64,000 nt of DNA from Kiritimatiellia bacterium. Lineage in GTDB: Bacteria; Verrucomicrobiota; Kiritimatiellia; RFP12; UBA1067. The notes beneath the pieces are model-generated. The model did not search any database and was not told the origin of the DNA. It saw only the letters and a list, made by a program, of their open reading frames with translations. The DNA lies in the NCBI GenBank assembly GCA_051884875.1, contig JBJEWD010000056.1:23223-87222 (forward strand). Reading direction: 5' to 3'. The translations under genes were made by a program, and so were the position numbers. Below, in pieces: positions 9,552 through 40,441 of this stretch (the stretch's first letter is position 1; each line of letters begins with the position of its first letter).

Positions 9552-10475
9552 ATGACATCCGAGCTGAAACCCCTCATTACCTGGTACCGGCGCGCGAAGC
9601 GTCCGATGCCGTGGCGCCTGAAGGTTGAACCGTATGCCTGCTGGCTGTCGGAGATCATGCTGCAGCAGACGACCTACGAGCAGGCGTTGCCTTACTATAC
9701 CCGCTTCCGCGCGCGTTTCCCCGATGTCCACGCGCTCGCGGCGGCGGATGAGCAGGACGTGCTGAAGGCCTGGGAAGGGCTCGGCTACTACGCCCGCGCG
9801 CGCAATCTCCTCAAGGCCGCACGGCAGTTCGCGACGACGGGCTGGCCGACGACACTCGCGGACTGGCGGGCGGTGCCCGGCGTCGGGCCTTATACGGCGG
9901 CCGCCCTCGCGTCGGTCCTCGATGGTGTTGAAGTCTGTGTCGTCGATGGCAATGTCGCACGGGTCTTCGCCCGCTACTGGAAGCTGACGGACGACTTCCG
10001 GAAGCTGCCGCCGCGTGAACAGCTTGCCGAACGGCTGCGGCCACTGATGTGCGCAAGGCCTGGTGATTTCAATCAGGCGATGATGGAGCTGGGTGCGCTC
10101 ATCTGTACGCCGAAGAGTCCGCGGTGCGGCGACTGTCCCCTGCGCACGCGCTGTCTTGCCGCAGCCGATGGAACGCCGGAGGCTTATCCCGTACGGAAGG
10201 CAAGGAAGACGCCCCCCGTGCGACGACAGCAGGTGGTCATCGTGACGAGTGGCGACGGAAAGGTTCTCCTCGTCCGTCGCCGGGCGGATGGCCTTCTGGG
10301 CGGACTTTGGGATTTGCCGTCGGTCGAGCCGGCGGGCGAGCACGTGCAGACCTTCAGCCACTTCAAGCTCGAACTTTCGCTTCTTCGGGCGACGACGGAG
10401 GCTGCCTTCGTCAATCCGCGCGAAGTTCCCCTGACGACTGCCGCGCGCAAGGTGCTGCAAAACATTGCGGTTTGA
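9552..10475 (+). CDS. mutY: A/G-specific adenine glycosylase MutY
   Basis: WLSEIMLQQT, WEGLGYYARARNL, HhH PGVGPYTA, VDGNVARV, FeS motif CTPKSPRCGDCPLRTRC, C-terminal HVQTFSHF. The start is moved from the ORF-track 9228 to ATG 9552. Confidence 0.95.
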   Translation: MTSELKPLITWYRRAKRPMPWRLKVEPYACWLSEIMLQQTTYEQALPYYTRFRARFPDVHALAAADEQDVLKAWEGLGYYARARNLLKAARQFATTGWPTTLADWRAVPGVGPYTAAALASVLDGVEVCVVDGNVARVFARYWKLTDDFRKLPPREQLAERLRPLMCARPGDFNQAMMELGALICTPKSPRCGDCPLRTRCLAAADGTPEAYPVRKARKTPPVRRQQVVIVTSGDGKVLLVRRRADGLLGGLWDLPSVEPAGEHVQTFSHFKLELSLLRATTEAAFVNPREVPLTTAARKVLQNIAV

Positions 10476-10640
10476 GGGACCACCCGTTCGGGTGGCGGTT
10501 TGTAGTTTACTCGCCGCCGGTGAATCTAACTGGTTGGGGGCTTCCGCTACCGCACCAGTTACTTCCGAATGCCGCAGTTATCTTTTCTGGTGTAGAGGCG
10601 CTGACCCCTAAATTTCCGTCCGTTATGGGGCGTGGAAATG

Positions 10641-10649
10641 TGGTATAAT
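10641..10649 (+). promoter_or_regulatory. Extended -10 promoter (TGGTATAAT) upstream of the structured RNA
   Basis: Same TGnTATAAT motif as upstream of many genes in this window. Confidence 0.6.
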
Positions 10650-10654
10650 AAGCG

Positions 10655-10925
10655 GCGGAAGCGTTGAAATGCGCCCGGATGGCGGCAAGGCCGCTGGGAA
10701 CGGCGCAGGATAACGCATCAATATACCGGTCGTGCGGCAACGGCGGCCAGCTTCTCCACGGGGCGACTCGGAGCGAGAGGTGCGCGGGGTGGGCAACCTA
10801 ACCCGTGCAGCGTACGCAATCTTGCGTATTTGGCTTTGACAGAAAACGACCAAATTTCCAAACCGAAGCTGGATATGTGGGATGCGTCACGTGGTCATCA
10901 CGTGGCGTGTCTTCTATTTCTTTTG
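10655..10925 (+). ncRNA. Unassigned structured RNA / cis-regulatory leader
   Basis: Multiple stems whose non-Watson-Crick pairs are G-U on the + strand, three GNRA tetraloops (GCAA, GCGA, GCAA), a long-range AGCTTC/GAAGCT closure and a terminal terminator hairpin. Confidence 0.6.
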
Positions 10926-10928
10926 TTT
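10881..10928 (+). terminator. Intrinsic terminator-like hairpin
   Basis: 14-bp stem GATGCGTCACGTGG / TCACGTGGCGTGTC followed by T-rich TTCTATTTCTTTTGTTT. Confidence 0.6.
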
Positions 10929-11058
10929 CGGTTAAGGCGCTTGGTCGTGCCTCTGTCAGAACATTGATGTAGGAGCACGCCACTTCCTTTTTCGCGCCGG
11001 GTGGTCGGGCCATTGTCAGGGGGCGCGGAATGCAGAGGGTAGAAAAGGAGAGTGTGGC

Positions 11059-12588
11059 ATGAGACTGTTTAAGCAGTGTATTGTCTGTGACCGAAAGTTT
11101 ATCGGGATGATCAATAAAAATCATTACGATTTATATCATGATGCTCTGCTTGCATTGAAAAAAGGTACTCCGTTTGCTCGCGGTTTTGTATGCGAGGACT
11201 GTGCTCATGCTGCAGCGACTGTTAAATGTTCGGTCTGTGGAAAAAACAAAGATGATATTTTCTATCATGTATCAAGAGGTGATGTATCAGGAGGGCTTTC
11301 GCAATACCTGCGTGAATATCATTTGCGTGCCCAAAAACTGCTTAATGATATAGGATCTTCTTTCAGGATAAGCGCCAAGTCGGTCTTTGTCTGTGATGAT
11401 TGTTTAATCCAGGCGTTTAATCAGGCTAGAAGCACCGCCATCGAAAAAGTTGGACAACCTGATGATACAAAGCAGACATTGTGGCTCAATTATGGTTTGG
11501 TGACGGATTCTAAATGCTGTTGTAGATGTGGAAATGAAATTCGTGAGAATTACGCAAAATTGTTTCATGCGTTCGTTGATTTTTTCTTTGTACCGATTCA
11601 CGAAAATGACAGGTCTGGATATTCCGTATGGGAAGGTGCCCATGGATACCTATGCGATCCGAACGGCGAGGGGAGGAAAGAGTTTTTTCGCAAACAGCTC
11701 GAGGAATGTTATTTCTATGATAATTGTTCATCTCTTGGCGTTCGCAGAGAACATGAACACTGGTACACACAGTTTCGGAAGGTTGTGCAGCCTTTTCTCA
11801 AAGAGAAGGTGTTATGCAGAAATTGTTGTGCATATTTGATGTCTGACAAGTTCCGTCAGGATTATTTTCGTCGGTCAGAGCGAAAGTGGCTTGGATTTGG
11901 ATGCCAAAAAGACGATTCAATGCTTGGCTTCTCCAAACAAATAATTTTTGATAAAGTGGCGCTCGAACAGATGTCCGGGGCGGATGCTCTTCGCATCCTT
12001 AAGTCCGAGGCATGGGAGATGGGAGCCAATGGCATTGTCAATCTGACGCGAACGAATAATGGTTATGAAGTGCGTCTGGAACCTGACTGGTATTTGACGA
12101 GCAAACTATACGACTGGTCAGGCGTCCCTGTTTTTTGGAGGAAGGAGGGGTCTATCGGTAAGATTTATGGTAAGGTTATCGTAGATGGATCAAACATCGT
12201 TTTCGCCGATAAGAGTAAGCTGACCACTGGTCTATCAACATGTTTGAAAGGGCTTAAGTTACGTAAGTTAAAGAGTTTCGTTTTTCTTGACGCCAATATT
12301 TATCACAAGTTAGAGGAGTTGGAGAATGGGTCAAAGTATGTGAAGGAACTGAAGGGCCTAATTGAGAACGCCAAGGGGTCGATTGCCATTGTCCCTGCTG
12401 GAACTAGAGCAGATGATTTTATATTGAAGAAGGCAGACACTGATGGATGTCATGTTTTGTCAAACGACCGATATAAGCCGTATACTGAGCGATATCCTTG
12501 GATCAAACAAGATCGAGTACATAGATTTTCCTTTGTTGATGGTCGCCTGATGATTCCGGATTTCGATATTGACATAGAAAACAAGTGA
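11059..12588 (+). CDS. Multi-Zn-ribbon, YbjQ-like, Zc3h12a/NYN-type PIN ribonuclease
   Basis: Six CxxC pairs (CIVC, CEDC, CSVC, CDDC, CCRC, CRNC), an AWEMGANGIVNL YbjQ-like motif, and PIN motifs VIVDGSN, FLDAN, ADDFIL, LSNDRY. RBS AAGGAG; AT-richer than the flanks. Confidence 0.75.
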   Translation: MRLFKQCIVCDRKFIGMINKNHYDLYHDALLALKKGTPFARGFVCEDCAHAAATVKCSVCGKNKDDIFYHVSRGDVSGGLSQYLREYHLRAQKLLNDIGSSFRISAKSVFVCDDCLIQAFNQARSTAIEKVGQPDDTKQTLWLNYGLVTDSKCCCRCGNEIRENYAKLFHAFVDFFFVPIHENDRSGYSVWEGAHGYLCDPNGEGRKEFFRKQLEECYFYDNCSSLGVRREHEHWYTQFRKVVQPFLKEKVLCRNCCAYLMSDKFRQDYFRRSERKWLGFGCQKDDSMLGFSKQIIFDKVALEQMSGADALRILKSEAWEMGANGIVNLTRTNNGYEVRLEPDWYLTSKLYDWSGVPVFWRKEGSIGKIYGKVIVDGSNIVFADKSKLTTGLSTCLKGLKLRKLKSFVFLDANIYHKLEELENGSKYVKELKGLIENAKGSIAIVPAGTRADDFILKKADTDGCHVLSNDRYKPYTERYPWIKQDRVHRFSFVDGRLMIPDFDIDIENK

Positions 12589-12597
12589 GGTTCTATT

Positions 12598-12882
12598 ATG
12601 CATGGAACACAGACTACAAGAAGAAATCGAAAGTGGTATAAGCTAACAGATGAGTTGATTAAAAGGAGGATGAACGCTACAATGCATCCTCTTCAGATTG
12701 AATTGTCTGATCAGGAAATTAGGGAAATAGTGGGCAGCGTCGACAAAAGCGATCCGCTGCCACTCGATAATGAGTATGACCCGCTGAACAGTATCAGGAT
12801 CCGTGCTGAGTACGCTTCATTTTCTGTCCGTTATAAAAGTGATGCCGAACGAAACATAAAGGTCTTTACTGAAAAAATGTGA
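12598..12882 (+). CDS. Hypothetical protein (94 aa)
   Basis: ORF 9 nt after the PIN gene with GAGG upstream; no family recognised. Confidence 0.5.
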   Translation: MHGTQTTRRNRKWYKLTDELIKRRMNATMHPLQIELSDQEIREIVGSVDKSDPLPLDNEYDPLNSIRIRAEYASFSVRYKSDAERNIKVFTEKM

Positions 12883-12894
12883 TAGGGTCTATTT

Positions 12895-13059
12895 ATGCGG
12901 CTGAATATAAAATTACCCCCGTATATAGGAAAGCTGCAGAGGAGAGCGCCTGTCTTAGACGAAGATGTTGACGCGCTGCTCGTTCGAGGTGTTGATTATG
13001 TCTGGTATTGTCACAGGAAAGATATTTCAGTTAAAAAGCGTTGCAGGAGGCGGCAATGA
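12895..13059 (+). CDS. 54-aa RHH-like protein, absent from the ORF track, paralog of the downstream small protein
   Basis: Hand translation: MRLNIKLPPYIGKLQRRAPVLDEDVDALLVRGVDYVWYCHRKDISVKKRCRRRQ. Its TGA overlaps the next ATG (ATGA), and it aligns by eye with the 70-aa protein. Confidence 0.55.
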   Translation: MRLNIKLPPYIGKLQRRAPVLDEDVDALLVRGVDYVWYCHRKDISVKKRCRRRQ

Positions 13060-13255
13060 AACTGGAGCTCGAACTGTCCAAGACGGACGAACGGCGCTGG
13101 TGTCGTTTGGCGAGATACTGGGGCGACGATATTGATTTGCTGTTCGCCGCCGTGCTCGACGAGATGTGGCAGAAGTGCGGCAAGGATGTTGCCGCGCAGG
13201 AGCGGTTGCAGAAGCGCTTGAATGGCCGGGTGAAACAGGTCCGGACGGACTTGGG
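13032..13255 (+). repeat. 224-bp direct repeat, copy 1
   Basis: Matches 15272-15495 with 8 substitutions counted by hand. Confidence 0.95.
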
Positions 13256-13268
13256 GCGAAGCGATTGA
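13056..13268 (+). CDS. Small ribbon-helix-helix-like protein (70 aa), copy 1
   Basis: RBS AGGAGG; MKLELEL alternating strand, helix, G turn, helix DIDLLFAAVLDEMW. Confidence 0.6.
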   Translation: MKLELELSKTDERRWCRLARYWGDDIDLLFAAVLDEMWQKCGKDVAAQERLQKRLNGRVKQVRTDLGRSD

Positions 13269-13298
13269 ATCAGCCATGCGCAACGGGAATATCACCGA

Positions 13299-13336
13299 GC
13301 TTTATTATGCGGATTAGTGCTTTATTATGCGGATTA
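13299..13336. repeat. Tandem 18-bp direct repeat GCTTTATTATGCGGATTA x2 (period 20)
   Basis: Exact copies at 13299-13316 and 13319-13336. Confidence 0.9.
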
Positions 13337-13639
13337 TTCCGTCTGTCAGGTCTTGGCCCTCGGATGGTATACCGTCACGGTGTGCGGGAAATAGGCCGTC
13401 TGCACCCTGTACGCATACTCCCGAGCGCAAGGCAAATGTACGTTGATCGGACGCAAGCTCTCGCGCCGACCCTCGGCAAAGCACCTGCGGCGCCCTCGCT
13501 GCGTGGCGTGGTAACCGCCACCGAAGAACCGTGGGGACAATCCCAAATTTCTCGGTGCGCACTTTCCCGGTACACCCGTGTAGTGTGTATTTGGTATAAG
13601 TACAGTATGTGAAAATGAGGAAGAAAGGAGGTGATAACA

Positions 13640-13750
13640 ATGATTGAACTGGAATGGACGGAAAACGTCCCCATGCAAGCAGGATACAGCTACATTGGGG
13701 CGGCGATGCGCGATTGCTCGTGCGGTAACGGTGATATTTATTGGGATTAA
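13640..13750 (+). CDS. Putative RiPP precursor peptide (36 aa), absent from the ORF track
   Basis: Strong SD AAAGGAGGTGA upstream; MIELEWTENVPMQAGYSYIGAAMRDCSCGNGDIYWD*; directly upstream of the rSAM/SPASM gene; TGGTATAAG -10-like element near 13592. Confidence 0.8.
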   Translation: MIELEWTENVPMQAGYSYIGAAMRDCSCGNGDIYWD

Positions 13751-13813
13751 ATGATGCTAAGGGCCTGGCATGTTCGGGCTTGCTCATTCGTGCCAGGTCC
13801 TTGTGGAATCCTT

Positions 13814-15124
13814 ATGATGAATAGAAGATTCGCAGTTTCGCCCGATACGATTCTAAAGTTTCCGACTGAAATCGCGACATATCATTCTGGCGATGACGTA
13901 GTTGTTGTTTCGCCCAAGGATGGAAATTGGCTCGTAATCACTGATCAGCAGGTCAAGCTCATTGAACAACTGATGCAGGGAAGATCGGTGGGGGTCGTTT
14001 TATCTGATAGTGACGACAAGAATGCCTGCTTGGCTTTACTAAAGCAAATCGTAGCGCGCAATTTCACAGACAGGGCATTGGTGGTTTCCGATCGAACGTC
14101 AACGGCCATGTTTTATCTTACATACGATTGCAACCTGCAATGTGAACATTGTTATATGTACGCGCAAAAGAGGCGTGGCGCGCCATTAACCGTTGCTGAA
14201 TATAGCGATATCTTTGCCTCTTTGCGAGGTGGTGGCGTCGATGAGGCGACATTCTCTGGTGGTGAGCCGTTGATGCGAAAAGATTTTTGGGAGATCATTA
14301 GCGCGTCTCATGAGAATGGATTGACTTCAAAAGTGTTTTCAAATGGTACCCTGTGGACTGATGCGGACATTGAGAATGCAAGGTCTCGCGAGATCAAGGT
14401 GCAGATTTCGATCGATGGGGTTGATGAGAGGTCGTCCTCAGCGGTCAGGGGTGTACATGCCTTTAAAAAGGCGAGATCGACTGCCGTGAAGCTGGCTAAG
14501 GCGGGTATAGAAGTCGAAGTAGCCACCACGCCTCTTATGACAAATATCGAGTTGATTGAGGCTGGTTATCGCGATTTTGTCAGAGAACTTCAGGATGAGA
14601 CGGAGGGGGCGATCAAGTTTAAGGTTTCGCTCAATTTGTTACCAGGCCGGAATGTTGGAAGGCTTTCATTGGACGAGAAGCGAGAATATGAACAGCGGGG
14701 AATTCGTCTGTACGCAATATCGAATCCAGGTGGAACGCAAATACCTTTTTTCGAAGAGTATAGAAATGGTCGAGGGCGCATTGCATGCGGACTAGGTAGA
14801 TTAGTGTTTTCTCCCGATGGATTTGCATATGTGTGTAGCCGAATCGATTCTTTCCCGCCGCTTGGGAATGTTAGGGATGTTGGCGTACCATTCTTGCTTG
14901 AAGTGGCGAGGAAACGTTTGGTCGCTGCGTCCGTAGACAATTCGATTCCATGTCGCGAATGCCCGCTGCGCCATATTTGCGGCGGAGGCTGTCGGGTCGA
15001 TCGGTTTGAGAAGGTGTCAAGTTCAGAACAATTCTTATCTGTGCACAAGCCATGCTCCGAGGGATATAAGGCCGCCTTGCTCAAAATGATGGTGCAAGCA
15101 ACGAAAGAATGTTATACGTGGTAG
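13814..15124 (+). CDS. Radical SAM/SPASM peptide maturase with N-terminal RRE-like domain
   Basis: CNLQCEHC, FSGGEPL, QISIDG and a 7-Cys SPASM domain (ACGLG..DG..YVC..CRECPLRHICGGGC..PC). An N-terminal extension of about 90 aa resembles a PqqD/RRE fold. Confidence 0.88.
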   Translation: MMNRRFAVSPDTILKFPTEIATYHSGDDVVVVSPKDGNWLVITDQQVKLIEQLMQGRSVGVVLSDSDDKNACLALLKQIVARNFTDRALVVSDRTSTAMFYLTYDCNLQCEHCYMYAQKRRGAPLTVAEYSDIFASLRGGGVDEATFSGGEPLMRKDFWEIISASHENGLTSKVFSNGTLWTDADIENARSREIKVQISIDGVDERSSSAVRGVHAFKKARSTAVKLAKAGIEVEVATTPLMTNIELIEAGYRDFVRELQDETEGAIKFKVSLNLLPGRNVGRLSLDEKREYEQRGIRLYAISNPGGTQIPFFEEYRNGRGRIACGLGRLVFSPDGFAYVCSRIDSFPPLGNVRDVGVPFLLEVARKRLVAASVDNSIPCRECPLRHICGGGCRVDRFEKVSSSEQFLSVHKPCSEGYKAALLKMMVQATKECYTW

Positions 15125-15271
15125 AGCGTTGGTCTGATTCATAAAAGGCTGACAGGTTCGATCGCGTAGATAAGCCTGCTGAAGTGTACCTTCGCCGCGC
15201 TTCAACTATGCGTTGAGCGACGACAAGGCTGAACGGTTGCGCCTGGAGGGGCGACGGTTGGACGCGACGGA

Positions 15272-15495
15272 TAAAAAGCGTTGCAGGAGGCGGCAATGAA
15301 ACTGGAGCTCGAACTGTCCAAGACGGACGAACGGCGCTGGCGGCGTTTGGCGAGATACTGGGGCGACGACATTGATTTGCTGTTCGCCGCCGTGCTCGAC
15401 GAGATGTGGCAAAAGTGCGGCAAGGATGTTGCCGCGCAGGAGCGGTTGCAGCAGCGCTTGAATGGCCGGGTGAAACAGGCCCGGGCGGCCTTGGG
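15272..15495 (+). repeat. 224-bp direct repeat, copy 2
   Basis: Matches 13032-13255 at an offset of 2240 bp. Confidence 0.95.
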
Positions 15496-15517
15496 CGGAG
15501 TCGGGCGGCCTGGTTGA
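15296..15517 (+). CDS. Small ribbon-helix-helix-like protein (73 aa), copy 2
   Basis: Near-identical to 13056-13268 with the same RBS and a divergent C-terminal tail. Confidence 0.6.
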   Translation: MKLELELSKTDERRWRRLARYWGDDIDLLFAAVLDEMWQKCGKDVAAQERLQQRLNGRVKQARAALGGVGRPG

Positions 15518-15708
15518 TTTTTTTTCTTTCAGGAGGGCCGCGCTCAAATAAAATTTCTTCTTTTCTGGTGTAGGGCGACAATCTAGATTCTTGCGCGTTG
15601 CGGTAATGCGATGAAAAGAGTATAATACCGCCCCATCCGCTCACTTGATAATCTCTCGGGCGGACAAACGGAACAAAACAGATAAACTCTAATGAAAGGC
15701 TCTGAATA

Positions 15709-32969: not shown

Positions 32970-34409
32970 ATGATAAAGTCGGAACACGTTGCGGAAATGG
33001 CCAGGGGCGGCCTCGGCCGTTTGCTGTTCAAATACTCCTGGCCGGCGCTGGTGGCGATGAGCCTCAACGCGCTCTATTCGGTCGTGGACCGCGTATTCAT
33101 CGGTCAGGGCTGCGGGGTGGACGCCATGGCGGGCTTGCAGCTCGCGATGCCGGTGATGATGTTCCTCGTGTCGTTCGGCCCGCTCATCGGCGTCGGTCAT
33201 GCGGCGGTTCTGTCGATCAAGCTTGGCGAAGGGGATCGGGCGACGTGTGAGAAACTCGTGGGCGAGACCGTGGCACTCAAGGTCTTCCTGTATGCCGTCC
33301 TGATTCCGCTGATCTACATTTTCCTGGAGGAGATACTCGCGCTGTGCGGCGCCGACAAGGTGACGCCGCAGGCCCATGCGGAGGCGCGCCGCTATCTCAT
33401 GATCGTCCTCACGTCGCATCTCTTCTCGCATCTCGCATTCGGCCTTTCCGCGCTCCAGCGAGCGGAAGGCGGGGCCATTCAGTCCATGAGATGCATGGTC
33501 GTCGGCTTCGGCATCAACCTCATTCTCGACCCCATCCTTATCTTCGGCTTCGACTTCTCGCTTTTCGGCATTCATTTCGCCCTGCCGGCCTTCGGGGTTG
33601 CGGGCGCGGCATGGGCGACGAACGTGGCGATGTTCGCGTCGTGTCTCTGGGCGTTCGGCTACTACTGGCGCGGCAAGACGCTCGTGCGGCTCCGCATCAG
33701 ACGCATCTGGATTTATCCGAAGCTGCTGAAGCGCGCGCTTTCGATTGGTCTCGCGCCGTTTCTCCAGCAACTGATGGGCTCCATCATCATCGCCTCGCTG
33801 CAGATTGCATTCACGCGATGGATGCCGGATGCGGCGTCGCGCACGGCGGAGATCGCCTCGCTCGGCGTCTTCAACGGCGCGCTTATCCTTATCCTTATGC
33901 CGATCCTCGGCTGTCAGCAGGGGTTGCAGCCGATTCTCGGATACAACTGGGGCGCACGCAACTTCCGCCGCGTCCTCGCGGCATTCAAGCTCGGCTTCTG
34001 GACAACGACCGTGCTGACGACTGTCGCCTTCGTGATTCAAGTCGTTCCGCCGTTCCCGACGTGGATCGCGGCCATGTTCGTCGAGTCGGACAATTCGGAG
34101 ATCATCGCGCTTGCCGCGCACGACCTGCAGGTCTCGAACTGCATGATCTGGTGCATTTCGATCAATATCACGGCGACGACCTACTTTCAGGCCATCGGGC
34201 GGCCCTGGATGGCCGTGTCGCTCTCGATGCTGCGACAGGGTATCGTGATGCTGCCGATCATCTGGCTCCTGCCGCACCTACTGGACGACAAGCCGTTCGC
34301 CATCTGGCTGTCGATGCCCGTCTCTGACGTCATCTGCAACCTCGTGACGATTCTCCCCATCGCGCTTCACCTGCGCTTTCTTGCGCGCGTCCGCGAACGA
34401 CGATACTAG
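32970..34409 (+). CDS. MATE family efflux transporter
   Basis: LYSVVDRVFIG, NLILDPILIFG, GVAGAAWAT; multiple TM segments. Confidence 0.92.
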   Translation: MIKSEHVAEMARGGLGRLLFKYSWPALVAMSLNALYSVVDRVFIGQGCGVDAMAGLQLAMPVMMFLVSFGPLIGVGHAAVLSIKLGEGDRATCEKLVGETVALKVFLYAVLIPLIYIFLEEILALCGADKVTPQAHAEARRYLMIVLTSHLFSHLAFGLSALQRAEGGAIQSMRCMVVGFGINLILDPILIFGFDFSLFGIHFALPAFGVAGAAWATNVAMFASCLWAFGYYWRGKTLVRLRIRRIWIYPKLLKRALSIGLAPFLQQLMGSIIIASLQIAFTRWMPDAASRTAEIASLGVFNGALILILMPILGCQQGLQPILGYNWGARNFRRVLAAFKLGFWTTTVLTTVAFVIQVVPPFPTWIAAMFVESDNSEIIALAAHDLQVSNCMIWCISINITATTYFQAIGRPWMAVSLSMLRQGIVMLPIIWLLPHLLDDKPFAIWLSMPVSDVICNLVTILPIALHLRFLARVRERRY

Positions 34410-34573
34410 AGATGCGCACGTGCGCATCCGGCATCCTCGCCTTTGCGGCTTCTGTCGCGTCGGCGCCCGCAAAGCAGGTGTTGTCGGCAACAGGGCGAGA
34501 AACGGGTGAGCGCGCATTGCAAAGGCGAATCCGGAAACGACGAGTGACGCTGAATTTGATATAATTTCCCAAG

Positions 34574-35947
34574 ATGAAGTTCTTGATCCATACGTACGGG
34601 TGCCAGATGAACGTCCGCGATTCGCAGGCGGTAGAGGCGCTTATGCTGGCGGCGGGACATGAACTGGCCGCGACGGAGGATGCGGCGGAGATCGTCATCA
34701 TCAACAGCTGCACCGTCCGTCAGAAGGCCGAGGAAAAGGCGGTCGGCAAGGCAGGCAACCTGATCGCCGCCGGAAAGCTGACGGGCCTGATGGGTTGCGC
34801 GGTGAAACGCATGGGCGCGGACGTCTTCCGGAGGCTGCCGAAGCTTGATTTTGCGGTGGGGCCGCGGCGGTTCGGCCTCATTCCCCACGTAATCGACCGA
34901 ATCGTACAGAATGGCGAGAAGCGCATCCTGGAGGTCGGCGATGACGAGGTGCCGACGGGGTTGGATGCTCATCCGGATATCCGGCGCGACGGTACGACCG
35001 GTGCGTTTCAGAGCTACGTGACGATTCTAATCGGCTGCGACAACCGCTGCAGCTACTGCATCGTGCCCGATGTGCGCGGCCATGAGTATTCGCGTCCCGC
35101 CCGCGAGGTCATCGCCGAGATCCGGGCGCTTGCCGAACGCGGCGTGAAGGAGGTCTGCCTCCTGGGGCAGAGCGTCTTGCGCTATGGTGTCCGCAACCCG
35201 GCGTGGGATGTGACCGATGCCCCGAGCCCCGGCGGCTACACCGAGGCGTTCCCGCGCCTGCTGGAAGCCGTTGCTTCGATTCCCGGCATCAAACGCATTC
35301 GCTTCACGAGTGCGCATCCGAAAGGCTGCACGGACGAACTCATCCGCATCTACCGGACGTTCCCGCAGGTCTGCCGCCATCTGCATCTGCCGGTGCAGTC
35401 CGGCTCCGACCGCATCCTTGCCGATATGGGACGCCGCTACACGCGCGCGGAGTATCTCGCCGCCGTGCGGAAGCTTCGCGCGTTCGATCCCGAGTTCGCG
35501 CTGACGACCGATGTCATCGTCGGCTATCCGGGCGAGACCGAGGCCGATTTTGAGGCGACCCGGTCGCTCATGGAGGAGGCGGGCTTCGACAACGCCTTCG
35601 TCTTCAAGTATTCGCCGCGTCCGGGTACGCGCAGCGCGGCCTTGCCGGACGATGTGCCGACGGCTGAGAAGGAACGGCGCGATCAGGTGCTGCTGGCGGA
35701 TCAGGAGGTGCGCGGCCAGCGCAACAACAATCGGCTCGTGGGTACGGTTCGCGAGGTGATGGTCGAAGGCCCCTCGAAGCGCAACCGGATGCGCTGGTCG
35801 GGGCGCGATTCGGGCAACCGCATCGTCGTCTGGGACATGGACGCGAAGGAGAATGATGAAAAGGCGGCCGCAGGGTGCCTTGTCAAAATCCGCGTAACCG
35901 AAGCGCATCCCCAGATTCTCCTTGGCGAACGCCTATTGCATCTCTGA
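34574..35947 (+). CDS. miaB: tRNA-2-methylthio-N6-dimethylallyladenosine synthase
   Basis: TYGCQMN, NSCTVR, GCDNRCSYCIVP, HLPVQSGSD, TRAM domain. Confidence 0.95.
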   Translation: MKFLIHTYGCQMNVRDSQAVEALMLAAGHELAATEDAAEIVIINSCTVRQKAEEKAVGKAGNLIAAGKLTGLMGCAVKRMGADVFRRLPKLDFAVGPRRFGLIPHVIDRIVQNGEKRILEVGDDEVPTGLDAHPDIRRDGTTGAFQSYVTILIGCDNRCSYCIVPDVRGHEYSRPAREVIAEIRALAERGVKEVCLLGQSVLRYGVRNPAWDVTDAPSPGGYTEAFPRLLEAVASIPGIKRIRFTSAHPKGCTDELIRIYRTFPQVCRHLHLPVQSGSDRILADMGRRYTRAEYLAAVRKLRAFDPEFALTTDVIVGYPGETEADFEATRSLMEEAGFDNAFVFKYSPRPGTRSAALPDDVPTAEKERRDQVLLADQEVRGQRNNNRLVGTVREVMVEGPSKRNRMRWSGRDSGNRIVVWDMDAKENDEKAAAGCLVKIRVTEAHPQILLGERLLHL

Positions 35948-35995
35948 TATTTCAGCACCTCAACGTTTCAACAACCCAACATCTCAACAACCAAC

Positions 35996-36736
35996 ATGAA
36001 GATCGCAATTATTGGCGCCGCCGGGCGCATGGGCAGAAAACTGATTGAACTCGCGCAAGAGGCCGGACTCGAAGTCGCCTATAAGGTCGATGTGGCCGAG
36101 GGGTATGAAAAGACCTGGGGTACGGGCTGCGCAGGGGTCGTTGATTTCTCCTGCCATACGGGTCTGCCGTCAGCCATTGCCAAGGCGGCGGAGGAGGGAA
36201 TTCCCTATGTGATCGGCACGACAGGCATCACGGACGAGGAGCAGAAGACCGTGGATGCGGCGGCGACCAGGATCCCCGTCGTCCAGAGCGGCAACTATTC
36301 GCTGGGGGTGAATCTTCTCCTCGAACTCGTCCGGAAAGCGGCGACGATCCTGGGGCCACAGTACGACGTCGAGGTGACCGAAATGCACCACCGGCACAAG
36401 AAGGACGCACCGTCGGGGACGGCGCTTATGCTGGCGAAGGCCGCAGCCGAAGGACGGGGCGTCAATCTGGCGGAGAAGGCCGTCTACGGCCGTAAAGGCG
36501 ATATCGGCGCGCGTCCCGTGGGCGAAATCGCCATTCATGCGCTGCGCGGCGGATCCGTCGTGGGCGACCACACGGTGATGTTCGCGGGGGAGCTCGAGCG
36601 CGTCGAAATCACGCATAAGGCGCAGGACCGCGCCGCTTTTGCCGCCGGTGCGCTGGAGGCGCTTAAGTGGGCCGTCGGCAAGCACCCTGGTATTTATACC
36701 ATGCGCGACGTCCTGGGCTTTGTTGCGAAATCCTAA
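35996..36736 (+). CDS. dapB: 4-hydroxy-tetrahydrodipicolinate reductase
   Basis: GAAGRMG, GTTG, EMHHRHKKDAPSGTA. Confidence 0.97.
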   Translation: MKIAIIGAAGRMGRKLIELAQEAGLEVAYKVDVAEGYEKTWGTGCAGVVDFSCHTGLPSAIAKAAEEGIPYVIGTTGITDEEQKTVDAAATRIPVVQSGNYSLGVNLLLELVRKAATILGPQYDVEVTEMHHRHKKDAPSGTALMLAKAAAEGRGVNLAEKAVYGRKGDIGARPVGEIAIHALRGGSVVGDHTVMFAGELERVEITHKAQDRAAFAAGALEALKWAVGKHPGIYTMRDVLGFVAKS

Positions 36737-36752
36737 AAAGGGGCAAACCGAT

Positions 36753-37955
36753 ATGCAGACTGTAACCGATCCATTTCATGCCGCCGCCGGCAAATCCAGT
36801 TTCATTCGCAGGATGTTCGAGAAGGGCCTTGAGCTCCGGCAGCAGTATGGCGATGACGCCGTGTGCGATTTCTCACTCGGCAACCCCGACGTTCCGCCGC
36901 CCGAAGCGGCCCGCGCCGTACTGCATCGAATCGCGGATGACGCGATCCGGCCGCTCGGTCTCGGCTACTGCCCGAATGCCGGCATTCCCGACTGCCGCGC
37001 GGCCATCGCCGATTACCTTTCCAGACAGCAGCAGCTTCCGCTGACCGGCAAGGACGTCATCCTGACCGTCGGTGCGGCATCGGCGCTCGTCGGCTTCTTC
37101 CGGGCGACGCTGGATGCGGGCGACGAGGTCATCGTTCCGAGTCCGTACTTCGTCGAATACGGCAACTACTGCGGACACTTCGGCGGCGTGCTGAAGCCCG
37201 TGCCCACGCGCGAGGACTTCACGCTCGATATTCCGGCGATTGCCGCCGCCATCACGCCCAAGACGCGCGCCATCCTCGTCAACTCCCCGAACAACCCGAC
37301 GGGCACGATCTACACCCGCACCGAACTCGAGGCCTTGGCCGCGTGCGTCGAGAAGGCCAACGCCGCGCGCGGCGAGGGCGAGCGGCCGCTCTTCATCCTC
37401 TCCGACGAGCCCTACCGCGCCTTCGCCTACGATGGGGTCGAGGTGCCGGCGGTTTTGCCGCTTTCGAAGTATGTGCTGGTAGTCGGCAGCTTCTCGAAAA
37501 CGCTGTCGATGGCCGGCGAACGTCTCGGCTACATCGCTGTCCATCCCGAACTCTCAAAGGCCGATTGCGGTGCCTTGCTGGCAACGCTCACGCTCGTCAA
37601 CCGTACGCTCGGCTACGTCAATGCGCCGGTCATCGGACAGAGACTTGCGGCGGCAATCTGCAACGAGACGATCGATCTCGCCATCTACAAGCGCCGCCAT
37701 GATCTGATGGCCCGCGTGCTGACGGCGGCCGGCATCGAATTCACGATGCCGCGCGGCGCGTTCTACTTCTTCCCGAAGGCGCCGGGCGGGGATGACGCGA
37801 AGTTCGTCGATGCGCTGCTCGCGGAAAAGATTCTCGCCGTGCCAGGCGCCGGTTTCGGGCGGGCGGGTTACTTCCGGCTCAGCTGTGCCGTCGACGAGAA
37901 AATCATCGCCCGCAGTGCCGGAGGGTTCGCACGCGCGGCGGAGGCTTGCCGATGA
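36753..37955 (+). CDS. PLP-dependent aminotransferase class I/II (aspartate aminotransferase-like)
   Basis: FSLGNP, NSPNNPTG, SDEPY, SFSKTLSMAGERLGY. Confidence 0.92.
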   Translation: MQTVTDPFHAAAGKSSFIRRMFEKGLELRQQYGDDAVCDFSLGNPDVPPPEAARAVLHRIADDAIRPLGLGYCPNAGIPDCRAAIADYLSRQQQLPLTGKDVILTVGAASALVGFFRATLDAGDEVIVPSPYFVEYGNYCGHFGGVLKPVPTREDFTLDIPAIAAAITPKTRAILVNSPNNPTGTIYTRTELEALAACVEKANAARGEGERPLFILSDEPYRAFAYDGVEVPAVLPLSKYVLVVGSFSKTLSMAGERLGYIAVHPELSKADCGALLATLTLVNRTLGYVNAPVIGQRLAAAICNETIDLAIYKRRHDLMARVLTAAGIEFTMPRGAFYFFPKAPGGDDAKFVDALLAEKILAVPGAGFGRAGYFRLSCAVDEKIIARSAGGFARAAEACR

Positions 37956-39079
37956 GAAGGGCGTGGGCTATGCTGTTCGTTGCGGCGGCAACGGCGGTTT
38001 CGGACGGCGCGGCACCGGTTTCCTATGACGCCGGGAAGCACCGCGTGACGTTCTCCATCGTCTCCACGGACTGCGGTCTCGACGCTCAACTCGAATTCCT
38101 GTTCGTGGGGCCAACCTCCGACCGCGATTACGAGTCCATGTTCGTGACGGAGGCGTCCGTACAGGCGATTGCCGATGCCTTCGACAAGGCCGGCTTCCCG
38201 AGGGGCGTTCCCATCGATGTGCGCACATGCCGCTTCTGGCCGGTGGGCAATGCCGTCGAGATGGAGCCGAGTTTCACCAATCTCGTGCGGGAAATGCGAG
38301 GCGAACCGCTCCCGAAGGTCATCTATACGGGTGGGCTGCGCGACGCGGCAGGCGTTCCCGAGGCGCAGACGAATATGCCGAGCGCCGTCTTCGCCCTGTA
38401 CAACTGCGGGCAGTCACTCATCACGCTGAACGATACGCTGGAGCAATCCGTGACGTATGGGCGTTTTCAGCCGGCGATCAAGATACCGAAAGGGGAGAAG
38501 CGTTCGGTGACGTTCACCTGGAAGGGGAATACCGATACGGCGCCGCTGATGCTCGGGCTCAGACCCGGCAACCTCGCGGAGGCCATGGCCACGCTTCGGG
38601 AAAAATCCGCGACCGCCGAACTTGACGTGCGAACCGACTTCGCACCTGAACTGACGGTCAAGGAGGCCGGTGCCTGTGCGCAGGCTCTCGCGCTGCTGGA
38701 TTCCACGCGCATCAAGCTGAACGGCTTCCGCGAAGGACAGCTCTTCTACCGGGCGTTCCTGCCGCTGGAGAAATGGCGCGACCGCAAGGAAAGGCTGGCC
38801 CAACCGCCCGAAGTCCATTTCAAGACCGACGGATCTGTTCTCGTCAATGAAATCATCGAGGATTGGAGCGGTGACGAGGAGACGATCGAGCCGAAACTCA
38901 GCGTCAGGGAGCATCCGTGCGCCGACCTCGCCGCTGCCGCCCAGCTCTGCGACACGCTGAGCGCGCGTACGCAGACCATCTTCGTCTTTACGTCGCCCGA
39001 AACGAAACTCGCCGATATCTACGCCTTCCGGAAGGGGATGGCGAACCCGCCCCTCAACTGGTACGTCTTCACGGAATGA
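37952..39079 (+). CDS. Secreted hypothetical protein (YdjY-like domain possible)
   Basis: Signal peptide, coupled to both neighbours by ATGA overlaps, with an LEFLFV...YESMF segment. Confidence 0.65.
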   Translation: MRRAWAMLFVAAATAVSDGAAPVSYDAGKHRVTFSIVSTDCGLDAQLEFLFVGPTSDRDYESMFVTEASVQAIADAFDKAGFPRGVPIDVRTCRFWPVGNAVEMEPSFTNLVREMRGEPLPKVIYTGGLRDAAGVPEAQTNMPSAVFALYNCGQSLITLNDTLEQSVTYGRFQPAIKIPKGEKRSVTFTWKGNTDTAPLMLGLRPGNLAEAMATLREKSATAELDVRTDFAPELTVKEAGACAQALALLDSTRIKLNGFREGQLFYRAFLPLEKWRDRKERLAQPPEVHFKTDGSVLVNEIIEDWSGDEETIEPKLSVREHPCADLAAAAQLCDTLSARTQTIFVFTSPETKLADIYAFRKGMANPPLNWYVFTE

Positions 39080-40350
39080 GTGTGGTCTCGACAGAGCCCC
39101 TTGCCGCGCGCATGCGCCCGACGACGCTCGACGAAGTCGTCGGGCAGGAGCATATCCTCGGTGCCGGCAAGTTGCTTCGGCGGGTCATCGAGGCCGACCG
39201 ACTCACGAACATCATCCTCTACGGACCGCCCGGCTGCGGCAAGACTACGCTGGCGGAAGTGATCGCCCGGACGACGAAACGCAACTTCGTGCGCCTGTCC
39301 GGCGTCGTCTCCGGGGTGGCGGACATTCGTGAGATCTGCAACCGTGCCCGAAACGAGTTGGGCGGCGAAGGCACGATTCTCTTCATCGATGAAATCCATC
39401 GCTTTAACAAATCGCAACAGGATGTTCTGCTTCCCTATGTCGAAAACGGTACGGTTGTTCTCATCGGCGCGACGACGCATAACCCCAATTTCTTCATCAA
39501 TACGCCGCTGACCTCGCGTTCGCTCGTCTTCGAACTGCACGCCCTGTCGCCCGAAGCGGTGTCGCGGCTGTTGGAAAGGGCGCTTACGGACGCGAAAAGG
39601 GGCTACGGGCGCCTCCCTTCCGAATTAGACCCGGACGCACGCGATTTCCTTGCAACCATCTGCGATGGCGACGCCCGCCATGCGCTGACGGCCCTTGAGA
39701 TTGCCATGCGTTCGACACCGACGGATGAAAAGGGCGTCATCCACTTGACGCTAGACGTCATCCAGGAATGTGTCCAAAGACGGCAGGTGCGATATGACAA
39801 AAAGGAAGATGGCCACTACGACACCATCTCGGCCTTCATCAAGTCCATTCGCGGTAGCGATCCCGATGCAGCCGTCTACTGGCTCGGCAAGATGCTGTCG
39901 GCGGGGGAAGATCCGCGCTTCATCGCGCGGCGACTCGTCATCAGTGCCAGTGAGGATGTCGGTAACGCCGATCCGCGGGGGCTGACGGTCGCCGTGGCGG
40001 CCATGCAGGCCTGCGAATTCGTCGGCATGCCCGAGTGTGCGATCAACCTGTCCCAGGCGACGACCTATCTAGCGTCAGCGCCCAAATCCAATGCGAGCTG
40101 CATGGCCATCAGCGAAGCGATGGCGGATATCGAATCCAACGCCGTCCAGCCCGTGCCCGAGCACCTCAAGAACAAGCACGTGAACGCCATCGGCAGCGGC
40201 AGGGTCACGGCGTACAAATATCCGCACGCCTTCGCCAACCATTTCGTCGAACAGGCGTATCTGGACATACCAAAGAAATATTACCGTCCAACCGAACAGG
40301 GGTACGAGGCAACCATCCAGAAGCGTTTGGACTTCCTGCATCATAGTTAA
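39076..40350 (+). CDS. rarA: Replication-associated recombination protein A (MgsA)
   Basis: PLAARMRP, GPPGCGKTT, FIDEIHRFNKSQQD, ISAFIKSIRGSDPDA, SEDVGNADP. Confidence 0.96.
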   Translation: MSVVSTEPLAARMRPTTLDEVVGQEHILGAGKLLRRVIEADRLTNIILYGPPGCGKTTLAEVIARTTKRNFVRLSGVVSGVADIREICNRARNELGGEGTILFIDEIHRFNKSQQDVLLPYVENGTVVLIGATTHNPNFFINTPLTSRSLVFELHALSPEAVSRLLERALTDAKRGYGRLPSELDPDARDFLATICDGDARHALTALEIAMRSTPTDEKGVIHLTLDVIQECVQRRQVRYDKKEDGHYDTISAFIKSIRGSDPDAAVYWLGKMLSAGEDPRFIARRLVISASEDVGNADPRGLTVAVAAMQACEFVGMPECAINLSQATTYLASAPKSNASCMAISEAMADIESNAVQPVPEHLKNKHVNAIGSGRVTAYKYPHAFANHFVEQAYLDIPKKYYRPTEQGYEATIQKRLDFLHHS

Positions 40351-40372
40351 CATAATACGCATTATGCGAGAT
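40345..40372 (-). other. Chromosomal dif site (XerC/XerD)
   Basis: Minus strand reads ATCTCGCATAA-TGCGTA-TTATGTTAACT, against E. coli dif GGTGCGCATAA-TGTATA-TTATGTTAAAT. Gene orientation switches nearby. Confidence 0.85.
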
Positions 40373-40441
40373 AGCTACGCGGGCGCATTTCTGGTCTTGT
40401 TATGGCAAAATACCAGATGATTTATATGCTATAATACTCCC

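Follow-up and report, generated by a model that had tools for sequence, protein, structure and literature searches.

The window analysed here is a 64,000-nucleotide stretch of DNA from a Kiritimatiellia bacterium (Verrucomicrobiota; GenBank assembly GCA_051884875.1, contig JBJEWD010000056.1, positions 23,223 to 87,222 of the forward strand), in which a block of low guanine-plus-cytosine (GC) content at 10581-15573 lies between the genes mutY and serC. This island is a mosaic and not one system: it consists of a structured RNA leader, an operon led by an NYN-type RNase gene, and a minimal cassette for a ribosomally synthesized and post-translationally modified peptide (RiPP). The GC content is 0.40-0.50 at about 10800-15200 as compared to 0.62-0.70 in mutY and the genes upstream of it, and rebounds to 0.54-0.58 inside the block at about 13000-13800 and 15000-15600. 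Every plausible gene of the island lies on the + strand, and no integrase or transposase family was found in its seven + strand open reading frames (ORFs) or in ten further ORFs on both strands. A preliminary description of this DNA had reported an AT-rich block of co-oriented genes, bounded by a 15-bp direct repeat and lacking an integrase or intact transposase, and the present results agree with it on all four counts. The layout that it proposed was recovered as far as the RNA, the nuclease, the peptide with its radical S-adenosylmethionine (SAM) enzyme and the repeated small gene are concerned; the ribbon-helix-helix (RHH) identity given to the small gene was not, as neither a family nor a fold matched. 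The ends of the island and the leader comprise the following features:

10581-10595, + strand: left copy of the direct repeat TCTTTTCTGGTGTAG (exact 15-mer), island boundary.
10641-10649, + strand: TGGTATAAT, candidate extended -10 promoter of the leader, kept in five of the six leader copies of the genome; role presumed.
10650-10809, + strand: 5′ domain of the leader, about 80% identical in three to four other copies of the genome and variable in other genomes.
10810-10983, + strand: leader core of 173 positions, matching the model with 176.1 bits.
10942-10993, + strand: alternative terminator-like hairpin, TGG.CGTGCC...GCACGCCA plus a U-rich tail; the 5′ arm of the hairpin doubles as the 3′ arm of the outer helices of the core.
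15499-15525, + strand: terminator-like hairpin followed by T8 at the right island end, the single strong terminator-like site.
15559-15573, + strand: right copy of the direct repeat TCTTTTCTGGTGTAG (exact 15-mer), island boundary.

The 15-mer TCTTTTCTGGTGTAG occurs twice in the 2.41-Mb assembly, both times at the island ends, where our own arithmetic gives a chance expectation of about 0.02 exact 15-mer pairs in 6.2 kb. Homology of mutY with its relatives stops near 10451-10456 and is followed by a terminator-like hairpin at 10484-10498, and the homology upstream of serC, shared with five relatives, resumes at 15612-15693, just right of the right-hand repeat. Excising the block together with one repeat copy would leave an intergenic region of 255 nt. 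The source assembly has 57 contigs and a completeness of 91%; the island sits on a contig of 102,662 nt and is flanked left and right by host-like DNA. A composite, foreign origin of the block is supported, and its insertion between mutY and serC would be marked by the 15-nt duplication. With the left repeat placed before the leader, the unit that was inserted seems to comprise a leader of host type in addition to the foreign cargo. The foreign composition, the exact terminal direct repeats and the intergenic insertion resemble genomic islands with attL and attR sites, but an integrase, a tRNA target or a mobility gene was not found here, and neither a tRNA nor a tmRNA was detected near the island.

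The leader is a large, well-supported RNA structure that matches no Rfam family. Its core starts with a small hairpin at the 5′ end, after which five helices with strongly conserved internal loops form one long nested stack; the 5′ domain that precedes the core closes with a hairpin of variable sequence. The candidate promoter TGGTATAAT lies about 165 nt upstream of the core and was not called by a simple -35/-10 scan. A structure-blind MAFFT alignment of 23 copies from 19 genomes gave a consensus of 45 pairs, 21 of them with compensatory changes. A covariance model was then built on the 173-position core, and covariation was scored over 49 distinct sequences. In these, 97.2% of the cells were paired and changes on both sides were found in 24 of 48 pairs (307 cells). 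The covariation score was 0.457 as compared to 0.213 in shuffles, of which 0 of 500 reached 0.457, and to 0.06-0.10 when the partners were slid by 1-3 columns. The alignment of 49 sequences was fitted to the covariance model and is hence favourable to it, and the structure-blind alignment agrees. Pairs of G and U are frequent, and these are consistent with the + strand only. Searches against Rfam 15 (4227 families) gave no match at E≤1 in the window between 9000 and 17000, and ten further leader copies gave chance-level rows only, one of which overlaps the core (ALIL, 18.4 bits against a cut-off of 50). No description of this leader was found in the part of the literature searched, which does not show it to be unpublished. 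An invertible promoter upstream of the leader was considered and rejected; the inverted repeats found there are the RNA's own helices or weak pairs.

The 3′ end of the leader has a second way to fold. Instead of closing the core, the 3′ arms of its outer two helices are able to pair with a segment further downstream, which is almost invariant, and the resulting terminator hairpin forms in 20 of 23 isolated 3′ segments of leader copies. The minimum free energy of the isolated segment in the window is -15.2 kcal/mol. Where the inner helix has changed from ACGAC/GTCGT to ATCGC/GCGAT, the downstream arm is unchanged and keeps its alternative pairing through a shift by a one-base bulge, as would be expected of a strand under two pairing constraints. 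Distant leader copies end in a canonical GC stem and U7. A U-tract lies at most 16 nt from the core in 76 of 83 leader copies, and in 63 of the 83 an ATG with a ribosome site follows 30-130 nt downstream (median 66 nt); in the window, the start codon of the NYN gene comes 75 nt after the core. Folding of the spacer at minimum energy pairs the ribosome site in 49 of these 63 copies, mostly with the U-tract.

With the structure, conservation, position and competing hairpin that we observe, the leader is probably an attenuator-type leader of the riboswitch or T-box kind, for which we infer the direction of switching and the existence of a signal. The long-range helices of the core and the terminator hairpin use the same strand, so that only one of them could form at a time. 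As long as the core fold holds, the terminator would be blocked and transcription would read through into the cargo, and in the read-through RNA the U-tract could pair with the ribosome-binding site. Three leader copies of the same genome, on contigs C55, C26 and C22 (L005, L006 and L007) before paralogous BspA-type genes, have weakened terminator hairpins, with -6.8 and -9.2 kcal/mol against -13 to -20 kcal/mol in most copies. Judged by these computed energies, such copies look as if they were constitutively on.

The leader is not confined to the island. The non-coding segment at 10610-11010 has five more copies in the genome at about 80% identity, plus fragments, which brings the leader copies to six; three of the six stand at the left edge of low-GC blocks. 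Within the genus the model matched 93 of 117 genomes, with 1-19 copies each and about 330 matches in all, and the leader was present in each of the 32 high-quality genomes (at least 90% complete, at most 5% contamination). These genomes are related, and counts across the genus therefore overstate independence. In an even draw across the phylum, 30 of 151 genomes had it, belonging to 19 of 79 genera. Full-length copies extend to other families of the order and to further orders of the class, where the architecture including the 5′ hairpin is preserved despite wholesale sequence change; other classes gave weak matches only, to model positions 22-150. Many leader copies of the genus are found close to a contig end, a few hundred bases away at most and with the contig broken off on their upstream side, and about one in five of the + strand matches listed begins less than 600 nt from the contig start. 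These positions point to a sequence ahead of the core that is repeated or heterogeneous in the assembled populations. What recurs ahead of varied cargo is this leader RNA, which the preliminary description had listed and left uninterpreted.

The cargo was surveyed by taking the first ORF behind 96 leader copies, a heuristic choice, and scanning 76 of these ORFs against Pfam. The scanned ORFs were 42 of 47 in a first sample (two paralogues, one duplicate and two very short ORFs were dropped), 29 of 40 loci in a second sample (ten short ORFs with doubtful starts and one near-duplicate were dropped) and five of nine loci in a wider phylum-level set. BspA-type leucine-rich-repeat proteins accounted for 15 of the 76, other surface repeats (PA14, Listeria-Bacteroides repeat) for four and TSP3 repeats for two. 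Defence-like genes made up 12 of the 76, namely HsdM_N, N6_Mtase, HSDR_N_2, an MmeI-type methylase, BrxA, PD-(D/E)XK, a PLD-SNF2 helicase (twice), SRA, FRG (twice) and DUF2971. FGE-sulfatase and AraC regulators were found behind two copies each, other single or sub-threshold families behind 12, and 27 of the 76 ORFs had no Pfam family. The six copies in the genome itself precede the NYN gene, three paralogous BspA-type genes and two further loci. One of the latter has an ORF without a known family and then a prepilin-type protein, and the other heads a low-GC cluster on contig C38 at 33454-40400 (L153:55-7000). That cluster contains three small ORFs, two radical-SAM enzymes, a Clp-type peptidase and an ABC transporter and resembles a more complete RiPP locus; behind it, on the opposite strand, is an ORF that has a transposase-type HTH_38 domain. 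What the leader-associated genes have in common is that they are variable, accessory genes, and they do not form one pathway. Genes for surface proteins, defence and foreign cargo are not one pathway, and no ligand suggests itself on that account.

Two candidate partners of the leader were set aside. Cyclic di-GMP as its ligand was dropped when no GGDEF domain was found in the 91% complete genome. A short second NusG-like gene (169 residues, PF02357 with 38.5 bits) occurs on contig C20 at 74558-75067 (L156:1228-1737), - strand. It adjoins a nucleotide-sugar dehydrogenase-like gene, a place that we take to be typical of antiterminators of polysaccharide loci, on a contig without a leader copy; no link of this paralogue to the leader was found.

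The first cargo module begins behind the leader with the NYN gene, which small ORFs follow:

11059-12588, + strand: 509-residue protein with a Cys-rich N-terminal part, a middle part without a known fold and a C-terminal NYN RNase domain.
12598-12882, + strand: 94-residue ORF that follows the NYN gene at 10 nt, with Met25 (12670) as a possible start.
12895-13059, + strand: 54-residue ORF, the stop of which overlaps the start of the next ORF (ATGA).

The nuclease had been described as a PIN protein with a Zn-binding part. The PIN-like nature stands and can be narrowed to an NYN domain (PF11977), which matches residues 372-502 with 39.8 bits against a cut-off of 23; the label Zn rests solely on CxxC pairs in the translation. 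The motifs D376-G-S-N379, D411-A-N413, D452-D453 (ADDF) and S468-N-D470 are invariant in 13 of 13 NYN sequences, and we presume that metal-binding residues are among them. In profile searches the domain matched the PDB entries of ZC3H12A, ZC3H12B, ZC3H12C and KHNYN, with DGSN and DDFI aligned to ZC3H12A. An AlphaFold model of residues 371-509 had predicted local distance difference test (pLDDT) values of 66-90 by 10-residue block, and its top fold matches in the PDB were ZC3H12B, ZC3H12C and KHNYN with template modeling scores of 0.58-0.63 over the target. The domain, the conserved motifs and the fold are thus those of RNases of the ZC3H12A (Regnase-1)/KHNYN type, but the island protein is bacterial and carries an N-terminal part of some 370 residues with several CxxC pairs, mostly at pLDDT <50, which has neither a family match nor a confident model. 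Unlike the ZC3H12A/KHNYN type, its full architecture was otherwise found only in six metagenomic relatives (45-70% identity). Five shorter relatives cover the NYN end only (67-72%) and one is distant; all are metagenomic, most of them on contigs <4 kb. Some NYN-domain protein occurs in 16 of 319 genomes of the order, the full architecture in this genome only, and phages and plasmids gave no match.

The small ORFs of this module have few relatives. The 94-residue ORF belongs to a small unnamed family with seven representatives at E≤0.001 among 1.84 billion proteins, which gene callers start at Met25; it has no Pfam, PHROG or PADLOC family at a significant E value. A search of the ESM Atlas with this ORF and with the 73-residue ORF described below gave unnamed clusters or nothing, and the 54-residue ORF found no family in profile searches. 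Relatives' NYN neighbourhoods were absent from two scans of genome contigs, and a metagenome scan gave only three distant loci at 30-36% identity. Among 20 NYN-domain loci, no relative of the 94-, 70- or 54-residue ORF stood beside the NYN-domain gene. The module may encode a conflict-type RNase, either a toxin or a defence effector, with a small partner protein, a reading suggested by its rarity, its foreign composition, the intact catalytic motifs and the company that the leader keeps.

The second module is bracketed by a duplicated segment with a small ORF in each copy:

13032-13255, + strand: left copy of a 224-nt direct repeat, holding a 70-residue ORF at 13056-13268.
13299-13336, + strand: two exact 18-nt tandem copies of GCTTTATTATGCGGATTA, with a start-to-start spacing of 20 nt.
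13640-13750, + strand: precursor-like peptide of 36 residues that contains a CSC motif and is preceded at 8 nt by the ribosome site AGGAGG.
13814-15124, + strand: radical-SAM peptide maturase, 436 residues from Met22 of a 457-residue ORF opening at 13751.
15272-15495, + strand: right copy of the 224-nt direct repeat, holding a 73-residue ORF at 15296-15517.

The peptide ORF ends 1 nt before the radical-SAM ORF opens, and the maturase would presumably cross-link Cys residues of the 36-residue peptide. The enzyme matches PF04055 with 64.2 bits (cut-off 29.5) and has the CX3CX2C motif as CNLQCEHC. It has no match to PF13186 (SPASM), yet the C-terminal segment CRECPLRHICGGGC (CX2CX5CX3C) is present, and more distant relatives carry PF13186. 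Peptide maturases make up the best NCBIfam rows of the enzyme, with StsB first (E 2.4e-32, residues 34-280); the StsB family NF045574 gave 112.4 bits, where the cut-off is 625, and since the enzyme falls far below every NCBIfam family cut-off it is a member of none of these families. A short Cys peptide gene ahead of a radical-SAM gene encoding a C-terminal Cys cluster is also the arrangement of the sactipeptide and ranthipeptide cassettes of StsB, SkfB and PapB, as compared to which the cassette described here scores below all family cut-offs and was found without a transporter, protease or immunity gene. Metagenomes contain about 21 relatives of the enzyme at 56-67% identity and more at 32-40%, including a Prevotella protein. 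It was found in two of the 319 genomes of the order at E≤1e-40, the second of them with a protein of 29% identity, and a search of 400 further genomes of the phylum did not find it; the best phage or plasmid match was a Treponema plasmid at 28.7% identity. PADLOC rows for viperins (pVip, E 2e-18) were rejected as generic similarity of the radical-SAM core. The tandem pair of GCTTTATTATGCGGATTA follows the 70-residue ORF in a 370-nt spacer before the peptide gene and is a possible operator.

The two 224-nt copies are 96% identical and are the only ones in the genome. The small gene that they hold is an orphan: among 5.8 billion protein clusters it had a single relative outside the genome (82% identity), and it had none in the 319 genomes of the order. 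The outside relative and the right copy share their C-terminus, from which the left copy differs. Apart from NNH6 (0.025) the ORF gave no Pfam row at E≤10, and NCBIfam, PHROGs and PADLOC gave none. Its AlphaFold2 model has three helices after a disordered N-terminus and no strand at a pLDDT of 62.8, with a strand formed in a dimer still possible, and no PDB fold matched it at E≤0.001. Such a layout, with one copy on either side of unrelated DNA, is what a circle integrating by homologous recombination at the orphan gene would leave. At 15126-15299 a frame that ends in the last eight codons of the 54-residue ORF is open for about 38 codons upstream of the right copy. The frame lies in unrelated sequence without a start codon and, from its layout, looks like the remnant of a different upstream gene.

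The surroundings of mutY and serC were compared in the genus. A match to serC was found in 52 of 60 relatives and one to mutY in 18 of 60, 14 of which also gave a serC match; in all 18 the two genes lie on different contigs. In eight mutY or serC loci of relatives, only mutY or serC itself matches the window and the flanking genes are not syntenic. In the closest relative (serC 91% identical) another gene precedes serC and ends about 170 nt upstream of it. As mutY and serC never share a contig and their flanks are non-syntenic, the interval does not exist elsewhere.

We think it likely, with some reservation, that this locus is a horizontally acquired island of 4,978 bp between mutY and serC, which carries two unrelated cargo modules, the NYN-led operon with its small ORFs and the minimal RiPP cassette, behind a cis-acting switch leader native to the lineage. 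The roles of both modules are our own reading. A wider proposal, which we offer tentatively as a serious possibility, is that the leader represents a new class of RNA switch that responds to a signal, as a riboswitch or through an antitermination factor that targets it, and that it serves throughout the bacterial class as an expression dock for contingency genes. Several points weigh against the first of these views. Transcription and termination of the leader are predictions made from sequence alone. Because the core fold is very stable by itself, a switch would need a kinetic or factor-driven step, and because the terminator arms barely vary, their pairing draws on energy and the bulge shift with little help from covariation. 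A host-type leader inside a mobile unit is odd for DNA of a distant donor; a transfer between members of one lineage, or a recombination event at the leader afterwards, might account for it. The other five leader copies of the genome have no flanking direct repeats of at least 13 nt. As for the cargo, a Pfam scan of the island ORFs gave the RiPP cassette no transporter, protease or immunity gene, and PADLOC offered no known defence family that fits the NYN operon.

Other explanations account for parts of these data. The preliminary description had proposed one defence or abortive-infection system in which a modified peptide or an RNA controls the nuclease, all genes acting together. We regard this as quite unlikely, even though the genes are co-oriented between the repeats, with a single strong terminator-like site closing the block on the right, and 12 of the 76 genes behind other leader copies are defence-like. 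The NYN and radical-SAM genes occur together in their own genome only among the 319 of the order: the partner is missing in 15 of 15 other NYN-bearing and in the one other radical-SAM-bearing genome. Co-occurrence elsewhere was what the description itself took as the mark of a single system, and its lack argues against one. Metagenomic relatives of the two proteins share just one contig size, 1700 nt, too short for both genes, a comparison that is a weak test with contigs this short. The modules also differ in GC content, and the RiPP cassette is separately bracketed by the 224-nt duplication. A check of the island against PADLOC-DB 2.0 gave no defence component: the radical-SAM enzyme showed just its generic similarity to viperins, and the other six proteins had no match. 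The second idea of the description, a cassette hotspot at which modules are exchanged by recombination at the repeated "RHH" gene, strikes us as unlikely too. Two 96% identical copies do flank exactly one module, and the C-terminus that the right copy but not the left shares with the outside relative fits one resident and one incoming copy. An orphan with two copies in the genome, one relative outside it and none in the order is, on the other hand, not a conserved swap site, and it has no DNA-binding or RHH family or fold. Nor are mutY and serC adjacent in any relative examined, so they show no series of alternative cassettes, and the hotspot idea lies beyond the reach of a synteny comparison.

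That the leader is no switch, and instead a trans-acting small RNA with its own terminator or a part of a mobile element that directs the insertion of cargo, is improbable in our view. Such a role would agree with its multiple copies and with the matches near contig starts, which are repeat-like, and also with its place at the left edge of low-GC blocks in three cases and within the repeat-bounded unit here. It sits poorly with the fixed spacing to the start codon (median 66 nt) and the paired ribosome site, and no recombinase, reverse transcriptase or transposase was found beside the sampled copies. The other copies are without flanking repeats, and three copies in the genome precede ordinary paralogous surface-protein genes of host-like GC. 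Least probable of all is an assembly artefact, by which a low-GC piece of another organism would have been joined into this metagenome-assembled contig. The sharp change in GC and an assembly of 57 contigs at 91% completeness would allow for it, but the block is embedded in host-like DNA of the 102,662-nt contig, it has the exact 15-nt duplication at its ends, and the host-type leader and the start of the foreign NYN gene are separated by the class-typical distance.

The island with its proposed switch leader can be placed beside known regulatory systems. With terminating riboswitches and T-box leaders the leader shares a covarying fold in the 5′ untranslated region, a closing helix the 3′ arm of which is shared with a terminator and U-tract, and an occurrence in several copies per genome, each directly upstream of a gene. 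It differs from them in that none of 11 copies matched Rfam, and here the switch is a prediction from sequence. Processive antitermination leaders, such as RfaH with ops/JUMPstart, the LoaP leaders, the EAR RNA and UpxY of Bacteroides, precede long and often horizontally acquired operons for surface structures, toxins and antibiotics. Their cargo is of the same kind as that behind the leader described here. The antitermination elements themselves are short DNA or RNA signals or are structured differently from this leader.

Taken by itself, the island is of an ordinary kind, with a rare nuclease and a small RiPP kit as its foreign cargo. The leader is out of the ordinary. It occurs in up to 19 copies per genome in a poorly studied, mostly uncultured lineage, where it stands before genes that decide how cells meet hosts and phages. 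If it is a dock for contingency genes, these would comprise BspA-type surface proteins, restriction-modification, bacteriophage exclusion (BREX) and other defence genes as well as foreign cargo such as the NYN RNase and the second RiPP cluster, and one signal would set the surface and immunity repertoire of the cell. Should it prove responsive to a signal, the leader would stand for a new regulon and a new class of RNA and would help to predict which accessory genes are expressed together. It also offers foreign genes in this lineage a natural and portable element for their expression.

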